Notes: generated from the sequence alone by a model not told the origin. A DNA stretch of 64,000 nucleotides from Candidatus Minusculum obligatum (GCA_045401155.1 CP174360.1:159035-223034); one strand, 5' to 3'. Numbered from the stretch's first letter, positions 29,262 to 44,362 are shown. Translations and numbers: made by a program.

Positions 29262-30740
29262 CCTGGCTACGTGATTAGTGATAAAAAAACGACCAGATAA
29301 AGGAAAGCGGATCAACCGCGCATTAATGCGTACCGCTTCCTGCTGAAGCGGATTTTTTATTCCAGAAAGAGAGTCACGCATGATGTTTGAAAATTGAATA
29401 GAAGAGCGAATGCATTTCATCAGCAATAATTCATAAAAGTTATTGTGGTTACCAGATCTCCTTTTTGGAGACTGTAAGAGTATATGGGGGATGCCTTGGC
29501 TCAAACGAGCGATGAAGGACGTGGAAGTCTGCGATAAGCTTCGGGGAGATGACAAACAATCTTTGATCCGGAGATTTCCGAATGGGGGAACCCAATCAAT
29601 TGTTATTGATTACTTATTGGGTCGCACCAATAAGAGCGAACCTGGGGAACTGAAACATCTAAGTACCCAGAGGAATAGAAAGCAACAGGGACTATTTTCT
29701 GTCTGGTTCCTTTTAGGATTCGGATAGAGGGTAGTCTTGCGATTTCCTTAGTAGCGGCGAGCGAAACGGAAGAAGCCCAAACCGGATACTTCGGTATCCG
29801 GGGTTGTACGGCAAAGGTGCTGCACTTGTGTAGGAAGAGTTACCAAGTGTGAATATAGAAAAAGTATCTGGGAAGATACACCATAGAGGGTAATAGTCCC
29901 GTATTCGAAATATTCACACCTCTTTCGCCTTTGTTCGTGAGTAGCTCGAGACATGAATAGCTCGAGTGAATCTGGGAGGACTAACTCCTAAGGCTAAATA
30001 TCGTTTGAGACCGATAGTGAACCAGTACCGTGAGGGAAAGGTGAAAAGAACCCCGAGAGGGGAGTGAAATAGAACTGAAACCATATACTTACAAACAGTT
30101 GGAGGGGTACTTGTACCCTGACAGCGTGCCTATTGAAGAATGAGCCGGCGAGTGTATATGTGCTGCAAGCTAAGTCCGTAATGGGACGGAGCTTTAGGGA
30201 AACCGAGTGTGAATAGCGCGTTAGTAGTATGTATACGACCCGAAACTAAGTGAGCTTGCCATGGGCAGGGTGAACACGTGTGAAAACACGTGGGAGGCCC
30301 GCACCGGTTGGTCGTTTAATGCCATCGGATGACCTGTGGTAGGGAGTGAAAAGCTAATCGAACTTAGTAATAGCTGGTTCTCTCCGAAACAGCTTTAGGG
30401 TTGGCGTCGCGTGTTCCCTTCGGGGGTAGAGCACTGGAAGGACTAAATAGGGGGAAACCTCGTTAGTCCTATCAAACTCCGAATACCGAAGATTAATAAC
30501 GCGGCAGTTAGACTGCGGGGAGAAGCTCCGTTGGTCGAAAGGGGAACAGCCCAGATCGCCAGTTAAGGCCCCTAAATTAGTGCTCAGTGTAACTTAAGGA
30601 AGTGAGGATCCTCCGACAATGAGGAGGTTGGCTTAGAAGCAGCCACCCTTTAAAGATAGCGTAACAGCTCACTCATCAAGGGTCCTTGCGCCGCAAATGA
30701 TCGGGACTTAAGCACTATGCCGAAACTGCGGGTTCGCGGA

Positions 30741-30919
30741 TTTCATTCAGGAAATGTTCTTTGTTTATTGAGGGGTGTTGGCCGAGCGGTTAAAGGCAGC
30801 GGGCTCGTCAGCCCGTGAGTTGGGAATCGTATGTCCCAGTACAACTCATCGCAGGTTCGAATCCTGTACACCCTGCCAATAAACTTTTTGACAATCTTCG
30901 GATTGTCTCCTGAATGAAA
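30741..30919 (+). other. intervening sequence inserted in 23S helix 45, closed by a perfect 12-bp inverted repeat (tttcattcagga / tcctgaatgaaa) and containing a tRNA-like element
   Basis: Alignment to the E. coli helix-45 region shows about 180 extra nt between 'ggttcgcgga' and 'tccgtgagcgg'. The flanks are perfectly complementary, and an inner 7-bp stem gtttatt/aataaac also brackets the tRNA-like core. Confidence 0.7.
30772..30878 (+). tRNA. class-II tRNA(Ser)-like element with encoded CCA, embedded in the 23S helix-45 insertion; anticodon loop is 6 nt (TCGTCA), so possibly a non-decoding pseudo-tRNA
   Basis: Acceptor GGGGTGT/ACACCCT, D arm TGGCCGAGCGGTTAAAGGCA (matches bacterial tRNA-Ser), anticodon stem CGGGC/GCCCG, a roughly 35-nt variable hairpin (GAGTTG...CAACTC), T arm GCAGG-TTCGAAT-CCTGT, discriminator G and CCA. 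Confidence 0.45.
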
Positions 30920-32710
30920 TCCGTGAGCGGTAGGAGAGCGTTCTGTTCGCGATGAAGGTAAAGGGGTGACCCATACTGGAGCGTACAGAAGTGAGAATGC
31001 CGGCACGAGTAACCGCAATGCGAGTGAGAGCCTCGCACACCGAAAGACCAAGGTTTCCGCAGCTACGATGATCAGCTGCGGGTTAGTCGGGCCTAAGGGG
31101 ATGACGAAAGTCGCACCCGATGGACACATGGTTAATATTCCATGACTGCATTACTATGCGATGGGGGGACGGATTGTTGTACACATTGCCCATTATTGGA
31201 TTTGGGTCGATGCTATGAGGGCTGCTTTTAGGTAAATCCGGAAGCGTATAGTCCAAGTAGAGTCGCAATGTTTTGGTTTCGGCCAGAATAGAGAATGTGG
31301 AGCACGGTTCCCAGAAAAGCCTCTAAGCATAATAGTAATGTATCCGTACCGCAATCCAACACAGGTGGTCAGGGCGAGTAGCCCAAGGTGAACGAGTGAT
31401 GGGTCCTCAAGGAACTCGGCAAAAAAGCGACCGTAACTTCGGGATAAGGTCTGCCCCTGCTTCTTCGGAGGTGGGGGCCGCAGCGAAAGTTTCTCTGGCG
31501 ACTGTTTATCAAAAACACAGCTCCCTGCGAACTCGTAAGAGTATGTATAGGGGGTGACGCCTGACCAATGCCAGAAGGTTAAGCACGGATGGTACATTTC
31601 TTCGGATTTGTGCTGGGCTGTGTAAGCCCTGGTGAATGTCGGCCGTAACTATAACGGTCCTAAGGTAGCGTAATTCCTTGTCGGGTAAGTTCCGACGTGC
31701 ACGAATGGCGTAACGACTGGAGAACTGTCTCGAGGACTTGCTCGGTGAAAATGCAATCCCGGTAAAGATGCCGGGTAGATGTGGAAAGACAGAAAGACCC
31801 CAGAAGCTTTACTACAGCTTCGTATTGGGGCTGCGTGACATGTGCGTAGCATAGGTGGGAGACTTTGAAGCATTCCTTTTGGGGAATGTGGAGTCGTCAG
31901 TGAAATACCACTCTCATGTTGTTCAGTCTCTAACCCTTAGGGAAACCCTAAAGGGACAGTGCGTGGTGGGTAGTTTGAGTGGGGCGCTCTCCTCCTAAAA
32001 AGTAACGGAGGAGTCTATTAAGGTCAGCTAGGCGCGAATGGACACCGTGCCGATAGTGTAATGGCAAAAGCTGGCTTGACTGTGAGGGGTACGTCCCGAG
32101 CAGGTGCGAAAGCAGAGCATAGTGATCCGACTGTACGCATTAGATGCGGCAGGAGCTCAACGGATAAAAGCTACTCTGGGGATAACAGGCTAGTCGCGCC
32201 CAAGCGTCCATAGCGACGGCGCGGTTCGGCACCTCGATGTCGGCTCATCTTATCCTGGGGCTGGAGAAGGTCCCAAGGGTTTGGCTGTTCGCCAATTAAA
32301 AAGATACGCGAGCTGGGTTCAAACCGTCGTGAGACAGGTTGGTTCTCTATCTTCCACATCCGTCGATTCTTGCAGAGATCTGCCCCTAGTACGAGAGGAC
32401 CGGGGTGGACGAACCTCTGGTCTATCGGCTGTCACGCCAGTGGCACTGCCGAGTAGCTATGTTCGGAATGGATAACCGCTGAAAGCATCTAAGCGGGAAG
32501 CCAACTCTAAGATTAGGAATCATTAAGACCCCTAGGAGATGACTAGGTTGATAGGCTCTACGTAGAAGTACAGTGATGTATTGAGCGGAGGAGTACTAAT
32601 TCGTCGTCGTCTCCAACAAGGAAGTCTGGATGACACAATATCTTTGAAGCTTTTGCTGATGAAATGTATTCGCTTTTCTTTCAATGAAATAAAAAACAAC
32701 GTGTTTTTTG

Positions 32711-32818
32711 TGTTGGTGATATGGCAAGGTGGAAACACCTGTTCTCATTCCGAACACAGAAGTTAAGCGCCTTCGCGCCGATGGTACTCGAAAGGGGAGA
32801 GTAGGTCGTCGCCAACAC
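32711..32818 (+). rRNA. rrf: 5S ribosomal RNA (about 108 nt)
   Basis: CCGAACACAGAAGTTAAGCGCC..CGCGCCGATGGTACT...GAGAGTAGG; the 5' gtgttggtg pairs with the 3' cgccaacac. Confidence 0.85.
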
Positions 32819-42729: not shown

Positions 42730-42757
42730 TTGACTCGGGAGTGTATATCCGTATAAT
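42730..42757 (+). promoter_or_regulatory. candidate 16S rRNA promoter (TTGACT-16-TATAAT)
   Basis: ccTTGACTcgggagtgtatatccgTATAATgg, about 150 nt upstream of the mature 16S 5' end. Confidence 0.55.
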
Positions 42758-42904
42758 GGCCCCACTGTCTAGAAAGGCAGTTTTTGATTGATTTTTGAAA
42801 CACGAGTCTAGTCCATTGGAGCTACCAAGTGACTAGATCATAGAGTACGTAATGATCACTGAGTTAAGTGGAATGAAATATATTTTCTTTCGTTCCGCCT
42901 ATTC

Positions 42905-44362
42905 TTATTTAGAGTTTGATCCTAGCTCAGGGTGAACGCTGGCGGCGTGGATAAGGCATGCAAGTCGAGTGGGTTTAGACCCACGGCAGACGAGGTAGTA
43001 ACGCGTAGGTACGTACCCCATAGTCAGGGATATCCCATCGAAAGGTGGTGTAATACCTGATGGTCCCGCAAGGGTAAAGATTTATCGCTATGGGAGCGGC
43101 CTGCGTAATATCAGCTTGTTGGTAAGGTAACGGCTTACCAAGGCTACGACGTTTAGGGGAGGTGAGAGCCTGACCCCCACCGATGGGACTGAGACACGGC
43201 CCATACTCCTACGGGAGGCCGCAGTCGAGAATCTTCCGCAATGGACGAAAGTCTGACGGAGCGACGCCGCGTGGTGGATGAAGTCCTTTGGGACGTAAAC
43301 ACCTTTTATGAGGGATGAAGTTTATTGACAGTACCTCATGAATAAGGGGCTCCTAATTCTGTGCCAGCAGGAGCGGTAATACAGAAGCCTCAAGCGTTAC
43401 CCGGAATCACTGGGCGTAAAGGGTCCGCAGGTGGTCATATTAGTCTCTCGTTAAATCTATGGGCTTAACCCATAGTCTGCGAGGGAAACGGTATGACTAG
43501 AGGGTATGAGAGATCTATGGAACTCACGGTGTAGGGGTGAAATCCGTTGATATCGTGGGGAACACCAAAGGCGAAGGCAATAGATTGGCATACTCCTGAC
43601 ACTCATGGACGAAAGCCAGGGTAGCGAACGGGATTAGATACCCCGGTAGTCCTGGCCCTAAACGCTGCTCGCTCGTTTTCGGAAGTATCGACCCTTTCGG
43701 AGACTAAGCTAACGCGGTAAGCGAGCCGCCTGGGTAGTACGAGCGCAAGCTTAAAACTCAAAGGAATAGACGGGGACTTGCACAAGCGGTGGATCATGCG
43801 GCTTAATTCGTCGCTAAGCGAAGAACCTTACCAGGGTTAGAAACTCAGCTGCATATATCCAGAAACGGATATAGCCTTCGAGGGTGCTGAGCAGGTGATG
43901 CATGGCCGTCGTCAGTTCGTGGTTTGAACTGTTCCCTTAAGTGGGGTAACGAACGCAACCCTTATTGCCTGTTATACGTGTCAGGCGAGACTGCTCCCTC
44001 ACGGGAGAGGAAGGTGGGGATGACGCCAGGTCAGCATGTCCCTTGATACCCTGGGCTGCACGCGTGATACAATGGTTGGTACAATGAGACGCAATGGGGT
44101 AACCCGGAGCAAATCTCCCAAAACCAATCTCAATCCGGATTGTGGTCTGCAACTCGACCACATGAAGTCGGAATCGCTAGTAATCGTGGGTCAGCAACAC
44201 CACGGTGAATACGTTCTCAAGTCTTGTACTCACCGCCCGTCAAGTCAAGGGAGTTGGGGGTGCCCGACGTTCCAGTTCATCTGGACCTAAGGCAAACTCA
44301 ATAACAAGGACTAAGTCGTAACAAGGCACGGCTAGCGGAAGCTGGTCGTGGATCAATTCCAA
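42905..44362 (+). rRNA. rrs: 16S ribosomal RNA, separately transcribed and not adjacent to the 23S; atypical 3' tail GGATCAATTCC
   Basis: AGAGTTTGATCCTAGCTCAG at the 5' end, GTGCCAGCAGGAGCGGTAATAC (515 site variant), ACTCCTACGGGAGGCCGCAG (338 site variant), and AAGTCGTAACAAGG near the 3' end. Confidence 0.9.

Follow-up and report, generated by a model that had tools for sequence, protein, structure and literature searches.

The subject of this work is a 64,000-nucleotide stretch of the genome of Candidatus Minusculum obligatum (GCA_045401155.1, CP174360.1:159035-223034), referred to below as the window, and in particular its ribosomal RNA (rRNA) genes. The analyses indicate, with a probability that we place at about 0.88, that these genes form two autonomous and co-oriented transcription units, 23S-5S and 16S, around a conserved housekeeping block of about 10 kb, that this layout is inherited, and that helix 45 of the 23S rRNA carries an insert resembling an intervening sequence (IVS). 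The host is an ultra-small bacterium of the Candidate Phyla Radiation (CPR, or Patescibacteria), a lineage for which a split layout is expected and already known.

Positions and order of the rRNA genes

The rRNA genes were called using Rfam at gathering thresholds across the window, and the intervening open reading frames (ORFs) were annotated with Pfam.

29464..32619, + strand: 23S rRNA gene, 3156 nt (Rfam RF02541, large subunit (LSU), 2515 bits, full model 1-2925)
32712..32817, + strand: 5S rRNA gene (Rfam RF00001, 85.5 bits)
32884..42515, mixed strand: intervening gene block (Pfam; same block and order in L050, L052, L054-L057 and L001, described below)
42904..44363, + strand: 16S rRNA gene, 1460 nt (Rfam RF00177, small subunit, 1390 bits, model 1-1533; aligned to E. 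coli rrsH)

A previous reading of this DNA, made from the sequence alone (the sequence-only reading), had given coordinates for all three genes, and Rfam agrees with them to within 5 nt. It had also described the 23S-5S pair and the 16S gene as co-oriented and about 10 kb apart. This is correct: all three genes are on the plus strand, and the 10,086 bp between the end of 5S and the start of 16S are full of protein genes, among which the Pfam annotation agrees with those it had named (SEDS protein, glycosyltransferases, folD and secDF). The spacer between 23S and 5S is 92 nt, and the distance from the 23S end (32619) to the 16S start (42904) is 10,284 bp. Both large genes are full length by the Rfam models rather than fragments, and are presumably functional; their scores are nearly equal to those of relatives (2515 vs 2529 bits for 23S, 1390 vs 1389 bits for 16S).

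The order 23S-5S...16S departs from the canonical rrn operon, which runs 16S, internal transcribed spacer (ITS) with tRNA, 23S, 5S, and has an ITS of less than about 1.5 kb containing tRNA-Ile and/or tRNA-Ala. The 10,284 bp between the nearest 16S and 23S edges places the genes among those that Brewer et al. call unlinked (more than 1500 bp apart). They would likewise belong to the unlinked 'by distance' class of Lui et al., defined by genes on the same strand, more than 2000 bp apart, with intervening genes that do not connect them, because the GT4 gene at 34747-35931 is on the minus strand and a predicted terminator follows the 5S gene. Three features described below were not part of the sequence-only reading, namely that the layout is the norm in CPR bacteria, that helix 45 has an insertion with a tRNA-like element, and that the 16S rRNA lacks the anti-Shine-Dalgarno core.

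Conservation of the layout in relatives

Contigs from relatives were retrieved from independent assemblies by means of their SecD homologues, and the rRNA genes on them were placed using blastn and Rfam. Scans of genome and metagenome contigs seeded with FolD returned mainly distant relatives, with rRNA nearby only in L001 and L004. The loci retrieved with SecD include the following, where percentages are identities to the window.

L050: ENA ERZ837273, 602,674-bp contig; SecD 81%, 16S 96%; 23S-5S, block, 16S
L051: Tara GCA_001371155.1, same species as L050; SecD 81%, 16S 96% over the first 344 nt, where the contig stops
L052: ERZ928008, 553,542 bp; SecD 78%, 16S 95%
L054: ERZ10759738; SecD 69%, 16S 92-95%
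L055: ERZ23491061; SecD 66%, 16S 92-93%
L056: ERZ23498929; SecD 60%, 16S 86%
L057: ERZ25071297, 617,472 bp; SecD 57%, 16S 84%

All seven loci have 23S-5S, the block and 16S on one strand, with a gap of 9.2-11.2 kb between 5S and 16S. The block in these loci consists of a hypothetical protein, rodA, GT4 (on the opposite strand), Bac_transf, epimerase, secD and secF, and most of the loci also have folD. L001, a more distant metagenome-assembled genome (MAG) labelled Saccharibacteria (FolD 39%, SecD 45%), keeps this order, and three short JGI contigs (L058-L060) confirm the junction at which an MscS-like gene, 23S-5S and the hypothetical protein adjoin. The order given by the sequence-only reading is thus borne out, with the same layout in at least seven independent assemblies. 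Judged from these comparisons, the layout is inherited rather than an assembly artefact, and is common to relatives down to about 84% 16S identity.

Predicted promoters, leaders, terminators and processing helices

The predicted control and processing elements of the two units are listed here. Promoters were sought with a sigma-70 scan of the region from 28.3 to 47.2 kb.

29232..29261, + strand: 23S-5S promoter, TTGACT-18-TATACT (second-best sigma-70 match of the region, 10/12)
29333..29357, + strand: hairpin and then a U-run in the 23S leader, boxB-like or attenuator-like (terminator scan; -12.4 kcal/mol, z -2.6)
29386..29401, + strand: boxA-like motif TTTGAAAATTGAATAG in the 23S leader (read from the sequence)
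29404..29473, + strand: 23S processing stem, 5' strand (RNAduplex with 32608-32676)
32608..32676, + strand: 23S processing stem, 3' strand, in the 23S-5S spacer (RNAduplex)
32831..32868, + strand: intrinsic terminator of the 23S-5S unit (16-bp A-tract/hairpin/U-tract, -21.4 kcal/mol, z -5.9)
32868..32876, + strand: extended -10-like element TGGTATACT, putatively serving the downstream protein block
42730..42757, + strand: 16S promoter, TTGACT-16-TATAAT (best sigma-70 match of the region, 11/12)
42764..42806, + strand: 16S leader, with hairpin ACTGTCTAGAAAGGCAGT and U-run followed by boxA-like motif TTTGAAACACGAG (conserved in relatives)
42835..42903, + strand: 16S processing stem, 5' strand (RNAduplex with 44500-44551)
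44500..44551, + strand: 16S processing stem, 3' strand (RNAduplex)
44547..44582, + strand: intrinsic terminator of the 16S unit (16-bp A-tract/hairpin/U-tract, -21.3 kcal/mol, z -5.0)

The two promoters are at the positions proposed by the sequence-only reading, and are both the two top matches of the scan and conserved in relatives. The hexamers and 18-nt spacing of the 23S promoter are kept 5' of the 23S gene in L055 and L058, while TTGACN-16-TATAAT is kept before the 16S gene in L050, L052, L054 and L055, with a spacer sequence that diverges. Terminators had been proposed at 32831-32868 and 44551-44580, and strong hairpin/U-tract folds are indeed present at 32831-32868 and 44547-44582; a terminator is found at the equivalent site 3' of 16S in six out of six relatives. 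Directly after the 5S terminator comes TTTTTGGTATACT, which occupies the same place in L050, L052 and L060 and occurs as a variant in L057.

The leader hairpin of 23S is kept in L050, L055 and L058. That of 16S is no more stable than shuffled sequences (z -0.4), so that its conservation is at the level of sequence. We take the leader motifs TTTGAAAATTGAATAG and TTTGAAACACGAG to resemble the boxA of rrn operons. Every 23S leader, including those of L050, L055 and L058, contains TTTGAAAAYTGAATAG, as do the 16S leaders of L054, L056 and L057; for the window, L050, L052 and L055, the 16S leader has the variant TTTGA(A/C)AnnCGAG.

Each large rRNA is predicted to be enclosed in its own processing helix. 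The helix formed by 29404-29473 and 32608-32676 encloses 23S only and has an RNAduplex energy of -78.9 kcal/mol, against -22.4 +/- 3.7 for shuffled sequences; equivalent stems in L050, L055 and L058 have energies of -85 to -87 kcal/mol. The helix formed by 42835-42903 and 44500-44551 encloses 16S only (-52.7 kcal/mol, against -31.6 +/- 3.9 for shuffles). The corresponding stems in all six relatives lie between -45 and -59 kcal/mol, and include a compensatory change, CCGCC/GGCGG in the window vs TCGCT/AGCGA in L054. Promoters, terminators and separate processing stems are thus all kept in relatives, in agreement with the earlier view of unlinked units that are separately promoted and terminated.

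The first unit would accordingly consist of a promoter, a leader with hairpin and boxA-like motif, 23S within its own processing helix of about 60 bp, the 92-nt spacer, 5S and a terminator. The second would consist of a promoter, a leader of the same kind, 16S within its own processing helix and a terminator, with a tRNA-Ile(GAU) gene farther downstream. Transcription would start and stop at these sites, with processing by RNase III and perhaps antitermination of Nus type.

An insertion in helix 45 of the 23S rRNA

The 23S gene of the window is 173 nt longer than that of L050, and one segment makes the difference. It contains the two features listed here.

30738..30922, + strand: IVS-like insertion in helix 45, about 185 nt (-92.7 kcal/mol, z -7.4)
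30772..30878, + strand: tRNA-like element within the insertion (Rfam RF00005, 42 bits vs a gathering score of 29)

The insertion is in the hairpin loop of helix 45, at Rfam model position 1218/1219. Alignment to E. coli rrlH using MAFFT puts it after nt 1182-1185, in the helix-45 loop (E. coli approximately 1164-1185). By blastn, 23S positions of approximately 1273-1461 have no counterpart in L050, L052, L054, L055, L056 or L058. Together with L004, these make up seven of the nine 23S genes covering the site (the window included) from which the insertion is absent, and it is absent even from relatives with 95-96% identical 16S. In relatives without it, helix 45 is short and ordinary, as in GGGTTCGTACATTTATGTATGAGC.

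The predicted structure is based on a perfect 15-bp stem, in which GGATTTCATTCAGGA (30738-30752) pairs with TCCTGAATGAAATCC (30908-30922). In the minimum free energy fold this stem stacks on the base of helix 45 to give about 21 consecutive pairs, a length suitable for RNase III. Inside it, a leader GTTTATTG (30763-30770) pairs with a trailer CAATAAAC (30877-30884), with the tRNA-like element between them, and a UUCG hairpin (GACAATC-TTCG-GATTGTC) occupies 30890-30907.

The helix-45 loop is where 23S IVSs classically occur; these add a stem to the rRNA and are removed by RNase III (PMC8708148). The insertion has the properties expected of a helix-45 IVS: it is in a terminal loop, it has an extended stem and it is sporadic among close relatives. 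It is similar to the helix-45 IVSs of Salmonella, Yersinia, Campylobacter and other bacteria (PMC8708148; mentioned for CPR in PMC11270868), which are likewise loop insertions of 100-200 nt with a long extra stem, are sporadic among close relatives, and are excised without religation so that the 23S is fragmented. It differs from them in carrying a tRNA-like module with an encoded CCA, and in having a homologue in L057 with two tRNA genes. Given its long perfect stem and embedded tRNA-like module, RNase III, or RNase P and RNase Z, or all three, would be expected to remove the insertion, leaving a 23S in two pieces.

Other length differences are present in both rRNAs. Relative to E. coli, the 23S has smaller expansions at 29687-29737 (51 nt), 29784-29819 (36 nt), 29837-29854 (18 nt) and 31605-31623 (19 nt), and five deletions of 13-22 nt explain the 1460-nt length of the 16S. 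The expansions and deletions appear to be common to L050, whose 23S differs in length from that of the window by approximately the helix-45 insertion alone. Some relatives have rRNA introns: LAGLIDADG ORFs lie inside 16S and 23S (L054 13388-14300; L055 14008-14703 and 3306-4010), and Rfam finds a group I intron in the L052 23S at 2719-2893. No intron was found in the rRNA genes of the window at the sites where these relatives have them.

The tRNA-like element and its counterparts in relatives

The cloverleaf of the element scores above the Rfam family threshold (E 1.6e-5 window-wide, 7.6e-8 locally). It is of class-II type, with a 7-bp acceptor stem, a class-II-type D arm (TGGCCGAGCGGTTAAAGGCA) that has GG in its loop, a canonical T arm GCAGGTTCGAATCCTGT with T loop GGTTCGAATCC, an extra arm of 33 nt, G73 and an encoded CCA. 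The anticodon arm, GCGGGCU-CGUC-AGCCCGU, can be drawn either as a 7-bp stem with a 4-nt CGUC loop or as a 5-bp stem with an 8-nt loop, and so does not give the canonical 7-nt anticodon loop with U33 and a purine at 37. ARAGORN makes no default call here, and reports the element only with an invented 21-nt intron, which is implausible. A genuine decoding tRNA was rejected on these grounds, and because of the forced intron and non-canonical anticodon loop we describe the element as tRNA-like.

A homologous insertion is found in L057, which has 84% 16S identity and is an independent contig of 617 kb. It is 327 nt long and is at the same helix-45 site (L057 1199-1526). Its outer stem, in which GAATTTCATTGAGGA pairs with TCCTCAATGAAGTTC, is homologous to that of the window and shows a compensatory change from C:G to G:C. 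Within it are two tRNAs, 'Phe'(AAA) and Thr(CGU), at 1328-1403 and 1423-1500, which are called by both ARAGORN and Rfam (61.9 and 50 bits). Both have an encoded CCA, and each has a leader paired to a trailer that contains the CCA; the 'Phe'(AAA) tRNA has G3:U70 and G73.

Further tRNA-like elements occur 3' of the 5S gene in relatives, at 3332-3545 in L050/L051, 309-530 in L060 and 3387-3560 in L052. L050 has an element with a 6-nt anticodon loop together with an acceptor/T-arm 'minihelix' ending CACCCCA-G-CCA; in L060 there is a class-I tRNA, whose anticodon is AGA, and a similar minihelix; and L052 has a degenerate version. A34 anticodons (AGA, AAA) are found among these elements. The 5S gene of the window has no trailing tRNA-like elements and is followed directly by its terminator. 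In this small sample the acceptor and T domains are retained and the anticodon loops vary without constraint, which suggests selection for recognition by processing enzymes (RNase P, RNase Z, the CCA-adding enzyme) rather than for decoding.

A regular-expression search of all loci for copies of the helix-45 element matched only L050/L051 and L057. A pattern scan of viral contigs gave no matches, nor did a protein search with a spurious antisense ORF spanning the insert. The literature searched yielded no account of a bacterial 23S IVS that carries a tRNA or tRNA-like element, and the word tRNA is absent from the survey of CPR rRNA insertions in PMC11270868.

We tentatively raise the possibility, which we consider doubtful, that these insertions belong to an undescribed class of bacterial 23S IVS with tRNA or tRNA-like cargo. 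Cuts by RNase P and RNase Z at the tRNA-like module of the pre-23S, perhaps together with RNase III, would give 23S pieces of about 1.3 and 1.7 kb and free a CCA-ended RNA of class-II shape. Such an RNA, which has no anticodon loop, could be recognised by proteins that read only the acceptor, T and long extra arms, for example the CCA-adding enzyme, EF-Tu or SerRS. The elements found 3' of 5S in relatives suggest a clade-wide tRNA-shaped 'punctuation' in rRNA maturation, in a setting of a reduced set of ribosome-biogenesis factors.

An LSU rRNA interrupted by a tRNA gene is found in the mitochondria of Tetrahymena and Paramecium, where the order is LSU-alpha/tRNA-Leu/LSU-beta. The similarity is that a tRNA stands between two LSU pieces and may act as a processing signal. 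The differences are that these systems are mitochondrial and use another site in the LSU rRNA, whereas the window is from a bacterium, has the insertion in helix 45, and has an IVS-type stem around the element.

Alternative explanations

Both the origin of the layout and its transcription could be explained differently. The 23S-5S and 16S blocks might have been misjoined during metagenome assembly through conserved rRNA sequence: the window assembly is a MAG, and short-read assemblies are known to be fragile in rRNA regions (L059 and L060 start inside the 23S gene). The sequence-only reading had proposed comparing synteny in related genomes as a check. The layout recurs, with the order, the intervening genes and a similar spacing repeated in at least seven independent assemblies from different samples, including three contigs of more than 550 kb as well as the distant MAG L001, and the junctions are in unique non-rRNA sequence with conserved promoters and terminators. 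The concern is thereby removed; a chimera was rejected on conserved synteny, and we give it almost no weight. It is also conceivable that 23S, 5S, ten protein genes and 16S are co-transcribed as one giant operon from the promoter at 29.2 kb, with the internal promoter merely boosting expression. All of the genes except GT4 are on the same strand, boxA-type antitermination could, if active, override the terminator after 5S, and Lui et al. (PMC8172020) note protein genes within apparently operonic CPR rRNA clusters. We nevertheless regard one operon as very unlikely, in view of the strong 16-bp terminator and U-tract directly 3' of 5S, the conserved extended -10-like element that would restart transcription past it, the antisense GT4 gene in the path, the best promoter match of the region, conserved and 140 nt 5' of 16S with leader motifs of its own, and the self-contained processing helix around each of 16S and 23S. 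The 5S terminator, the restart element TTTTTGGTATACT and the antisense GT4 gene favour three predicted transcription units (23S-5S, the protein block and 16S) over a giant operon.

As for the helix-45 insertion, the Rfam hit might be a chance match on an ordinary rRNA expansion segment that has neither tRNA ancestry nor tRNA-like processing. This would fit the silence of ARAGORN by default, the lack of a 7-nt anticodon loop, and a score of 42 bits, which is well under the 75.6 bits of the tRNA-Ile gene in the window. It fits poorly with a window-wide E of 1.6e-5 above the gathering score, and with the combination of canonical T loop, GG in the D loop, 7-bp acceptor stem, G73 and encoded CCA. 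The segment is moreover an insertion missing from relatives with 95-96% identical 16S, and the homologous insertion of L057 contains two tRNAs by both ARAGORN and Rfam. A chance match is in our view unlikely.

Several points weigh against the reading of two autonomous, inherited units with an IVS-like insert. The rRNA genes and most of the intervening genes are on one strand, so some read-through from 23S-5S into 16S may occur. The promoters, terminators and boxA motifs are predictions. Promoter-like sites are overall not enriched in the scanned region (22 found vs 31.5 expected), and the weight of the two rRNA promoters therefore comes from their conservation in relatives. The layout is not universal: L062 (SecD 56%) has no rRNA within 10 kb of secD, and L004 (Nomurabacteria) has 23S-5S upstream of the block and no 16S within 6 kb downstream. 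The sample for helix 45 is small, with the insertion in two of nine 23S genes (the window, and a variant in L057). Finally, the window covers only 64 kb of the genome, and a second, linked copy of the rRNA genes may exist elsewhere.

The 3' end of 16S and the loss of the anti-Shine-Dalgarno core

The 3' end of the 16S rRNA (44340-44363) is GGAUCAAUUCC, from which the CCUCC anti-Shine-Dalgarno core is absent: it ends with GGAUCAAUUCCAAG where E. coli has GGAUCACCUCCUUA. The same or a near-identical tail is present in all relatives examined. The motif bound by Era, GAUCACCUCC, is altered because of the loss of the CCUCC core. Neither GGAGG nor AGGAG was found in any of 40 putative start regions across the window, and T is at position -1 in 27 of the 40. 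GGAAUU as a compensating Shine-Dalgarno motif was considered and is unsupported, with GGAAT, GGAGG or AGGAG in 0 of the 40 upstream regions. Loss of the anti-Shine-Dalgarno motif in a subgroup of Parcubacteria has been reported previously (PMC9297842).

Intervening genes and surroundings

The intervening block consists, in order, of a hypothetical protein (247-260 aa) adjoining 5S, rodA (SEDS), GT4, Bac_transf (a sugar transferase), an NAD-dependent epimerase, folD, secD, secF, a small AAA-type kinase, and a 119-aa hypothetical protein. All are on the plus strand except the GT4 glycosyltransferase. A MurD-like ligase is encoded 3' of 16S at 45284-46561, and beyond it, 2.5 kb downstream of 16S, is a tRNA gene.

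46832..46906, + strand: tRNA-Ile(GAU) (ARAGORN and Rfam, 75.6 bits)

L050, L052, L056 and L057 likewise have a tRNA-Ile(GAU) gene on the 16S strand, about 0.6 to 2.9 kb 3' of 16S. It is likely to be a displaced remnant of the 16S-23S spacer tRNA. A canonical 16S-tRNAIle-23S-5S operon would be the simplest source of the layout, and the tRNA-Ile gene 3' of 16S fits the stranded spacer tRNA of such an ancestor; the route would have been either a tandem duplication and subsequent reciprocal loss, or relocation of 23S-5S.

SecD and the hypothetical protein adjoining 5S are both 100% identical to proteins of the MAG 'Patescibacteria group bacterium UBA2103', in which SecD is encoded on a 578,798-bp contig. 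The gene content of the window is CPR-like, with aminoacyl-tRNA synthetases, RecA, FtsK, type IV pilus genes, a TraG-like protein and many proteins without a family. Between tRNA-Ile and a MurC-like ligase, which are nearly adjacent in L050, the window has a block of about 9 kb (47114-56279). It contains genes for a CHASE/PAS histidine kinase of 1225 aa whose N-terminal region is PorA-like, for three single-domain response regulators, and for type IV pilus proteins (T2SSE, T2SSF, pilin). The L10 and L7/L12 genes (23614-24675) are not preceded by L11-L1; the gene upstream encodes a Wzy_C/TPR protein. Within the 64 kb seen, this may fit the CPR subgroup that lacks uL1, which overlaps with loss of the anti-Shine-Dalgarno motif.

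The cumulative GC skew has a minimum near 13-15 kb (region approximately 9000-15900). Gene orientation flips there, from minus (9143-14568) to plus (from 14618), and there is a 570-nt intergenic region at 15331-15900. The skew minimum and strand switch may mark the replication origin, in which case both rRNA units would be on the leading strand and within about 30 kb of the origin.

Relation to known split rRNA systems and significance

Split rRNA arrangements occur in Thermus thermophilus, Helicobacter and Rickettsia. A 23S-5S operon separate from 16S is likewise found in Borrelia burgdorferi, Buchnera and Wolbachia (PMC8172020, PMC8708148). The classic split systems resemble the window in having a 23S-5S unit and a 16S unit, each with its own promoter and processing, and one or few rRNA copies. 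They differ in distances and intervening genes; the units of the window are co-oriented and only about 10 kb apart, with 23S-5S upstream.

Among CPR bacteria, Brewer et al. (2020, bioRxiv 10.1101/705046), who define unlinked genes as being more than 1500 bp apart, place Patescibacteria among the clades that show phylogenetic conservation of the trait. Of the 34 circularised CPR genomes studied by Lui et al. (2021, PMC8172020), 27 were unlinked, with clade-specific patterns, and in about half of their genomes the gene closer to 16S was 5S rather than 23S. The window shows no essential difference from the genomes in these two surveys: 16S lies far beyond 1.5-2 kb from 23S-5S with protein genes between, the host has a small genome, the pattern is clade-specific and conserved, and the order 23S-5S...16S corresponds to the half with 16S near 5S. 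What is added to the surveys is the syntenic block rodA...folD-secDF, the conserved promoters and leader motifs, the separate processing helices and the trailing tRNA-Ile.

The split layout in itself therefore adds little new biology, being the expected state for CPR bacteria. It has practical consequences: methods based on long 16S-ITS-23S amplicons will miss such organisms, and quality checks in binning and assembly should not call such a layout a misassembly. The promoters, leader motifs and separate helices provide a clean sequence-level model of independent expression of rRNA units in an approximately 0.6-Mb genome. The tRNA-like module in helix 45 of 23S, together with its two-tRNA homologue in L057, is the part worth following up. 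Should that module undergo tRNA-type processing, it would represent tRNA-punctuated fragmentation of rRNA in a bacterium, as well as a new kind of cargo for an IVS.

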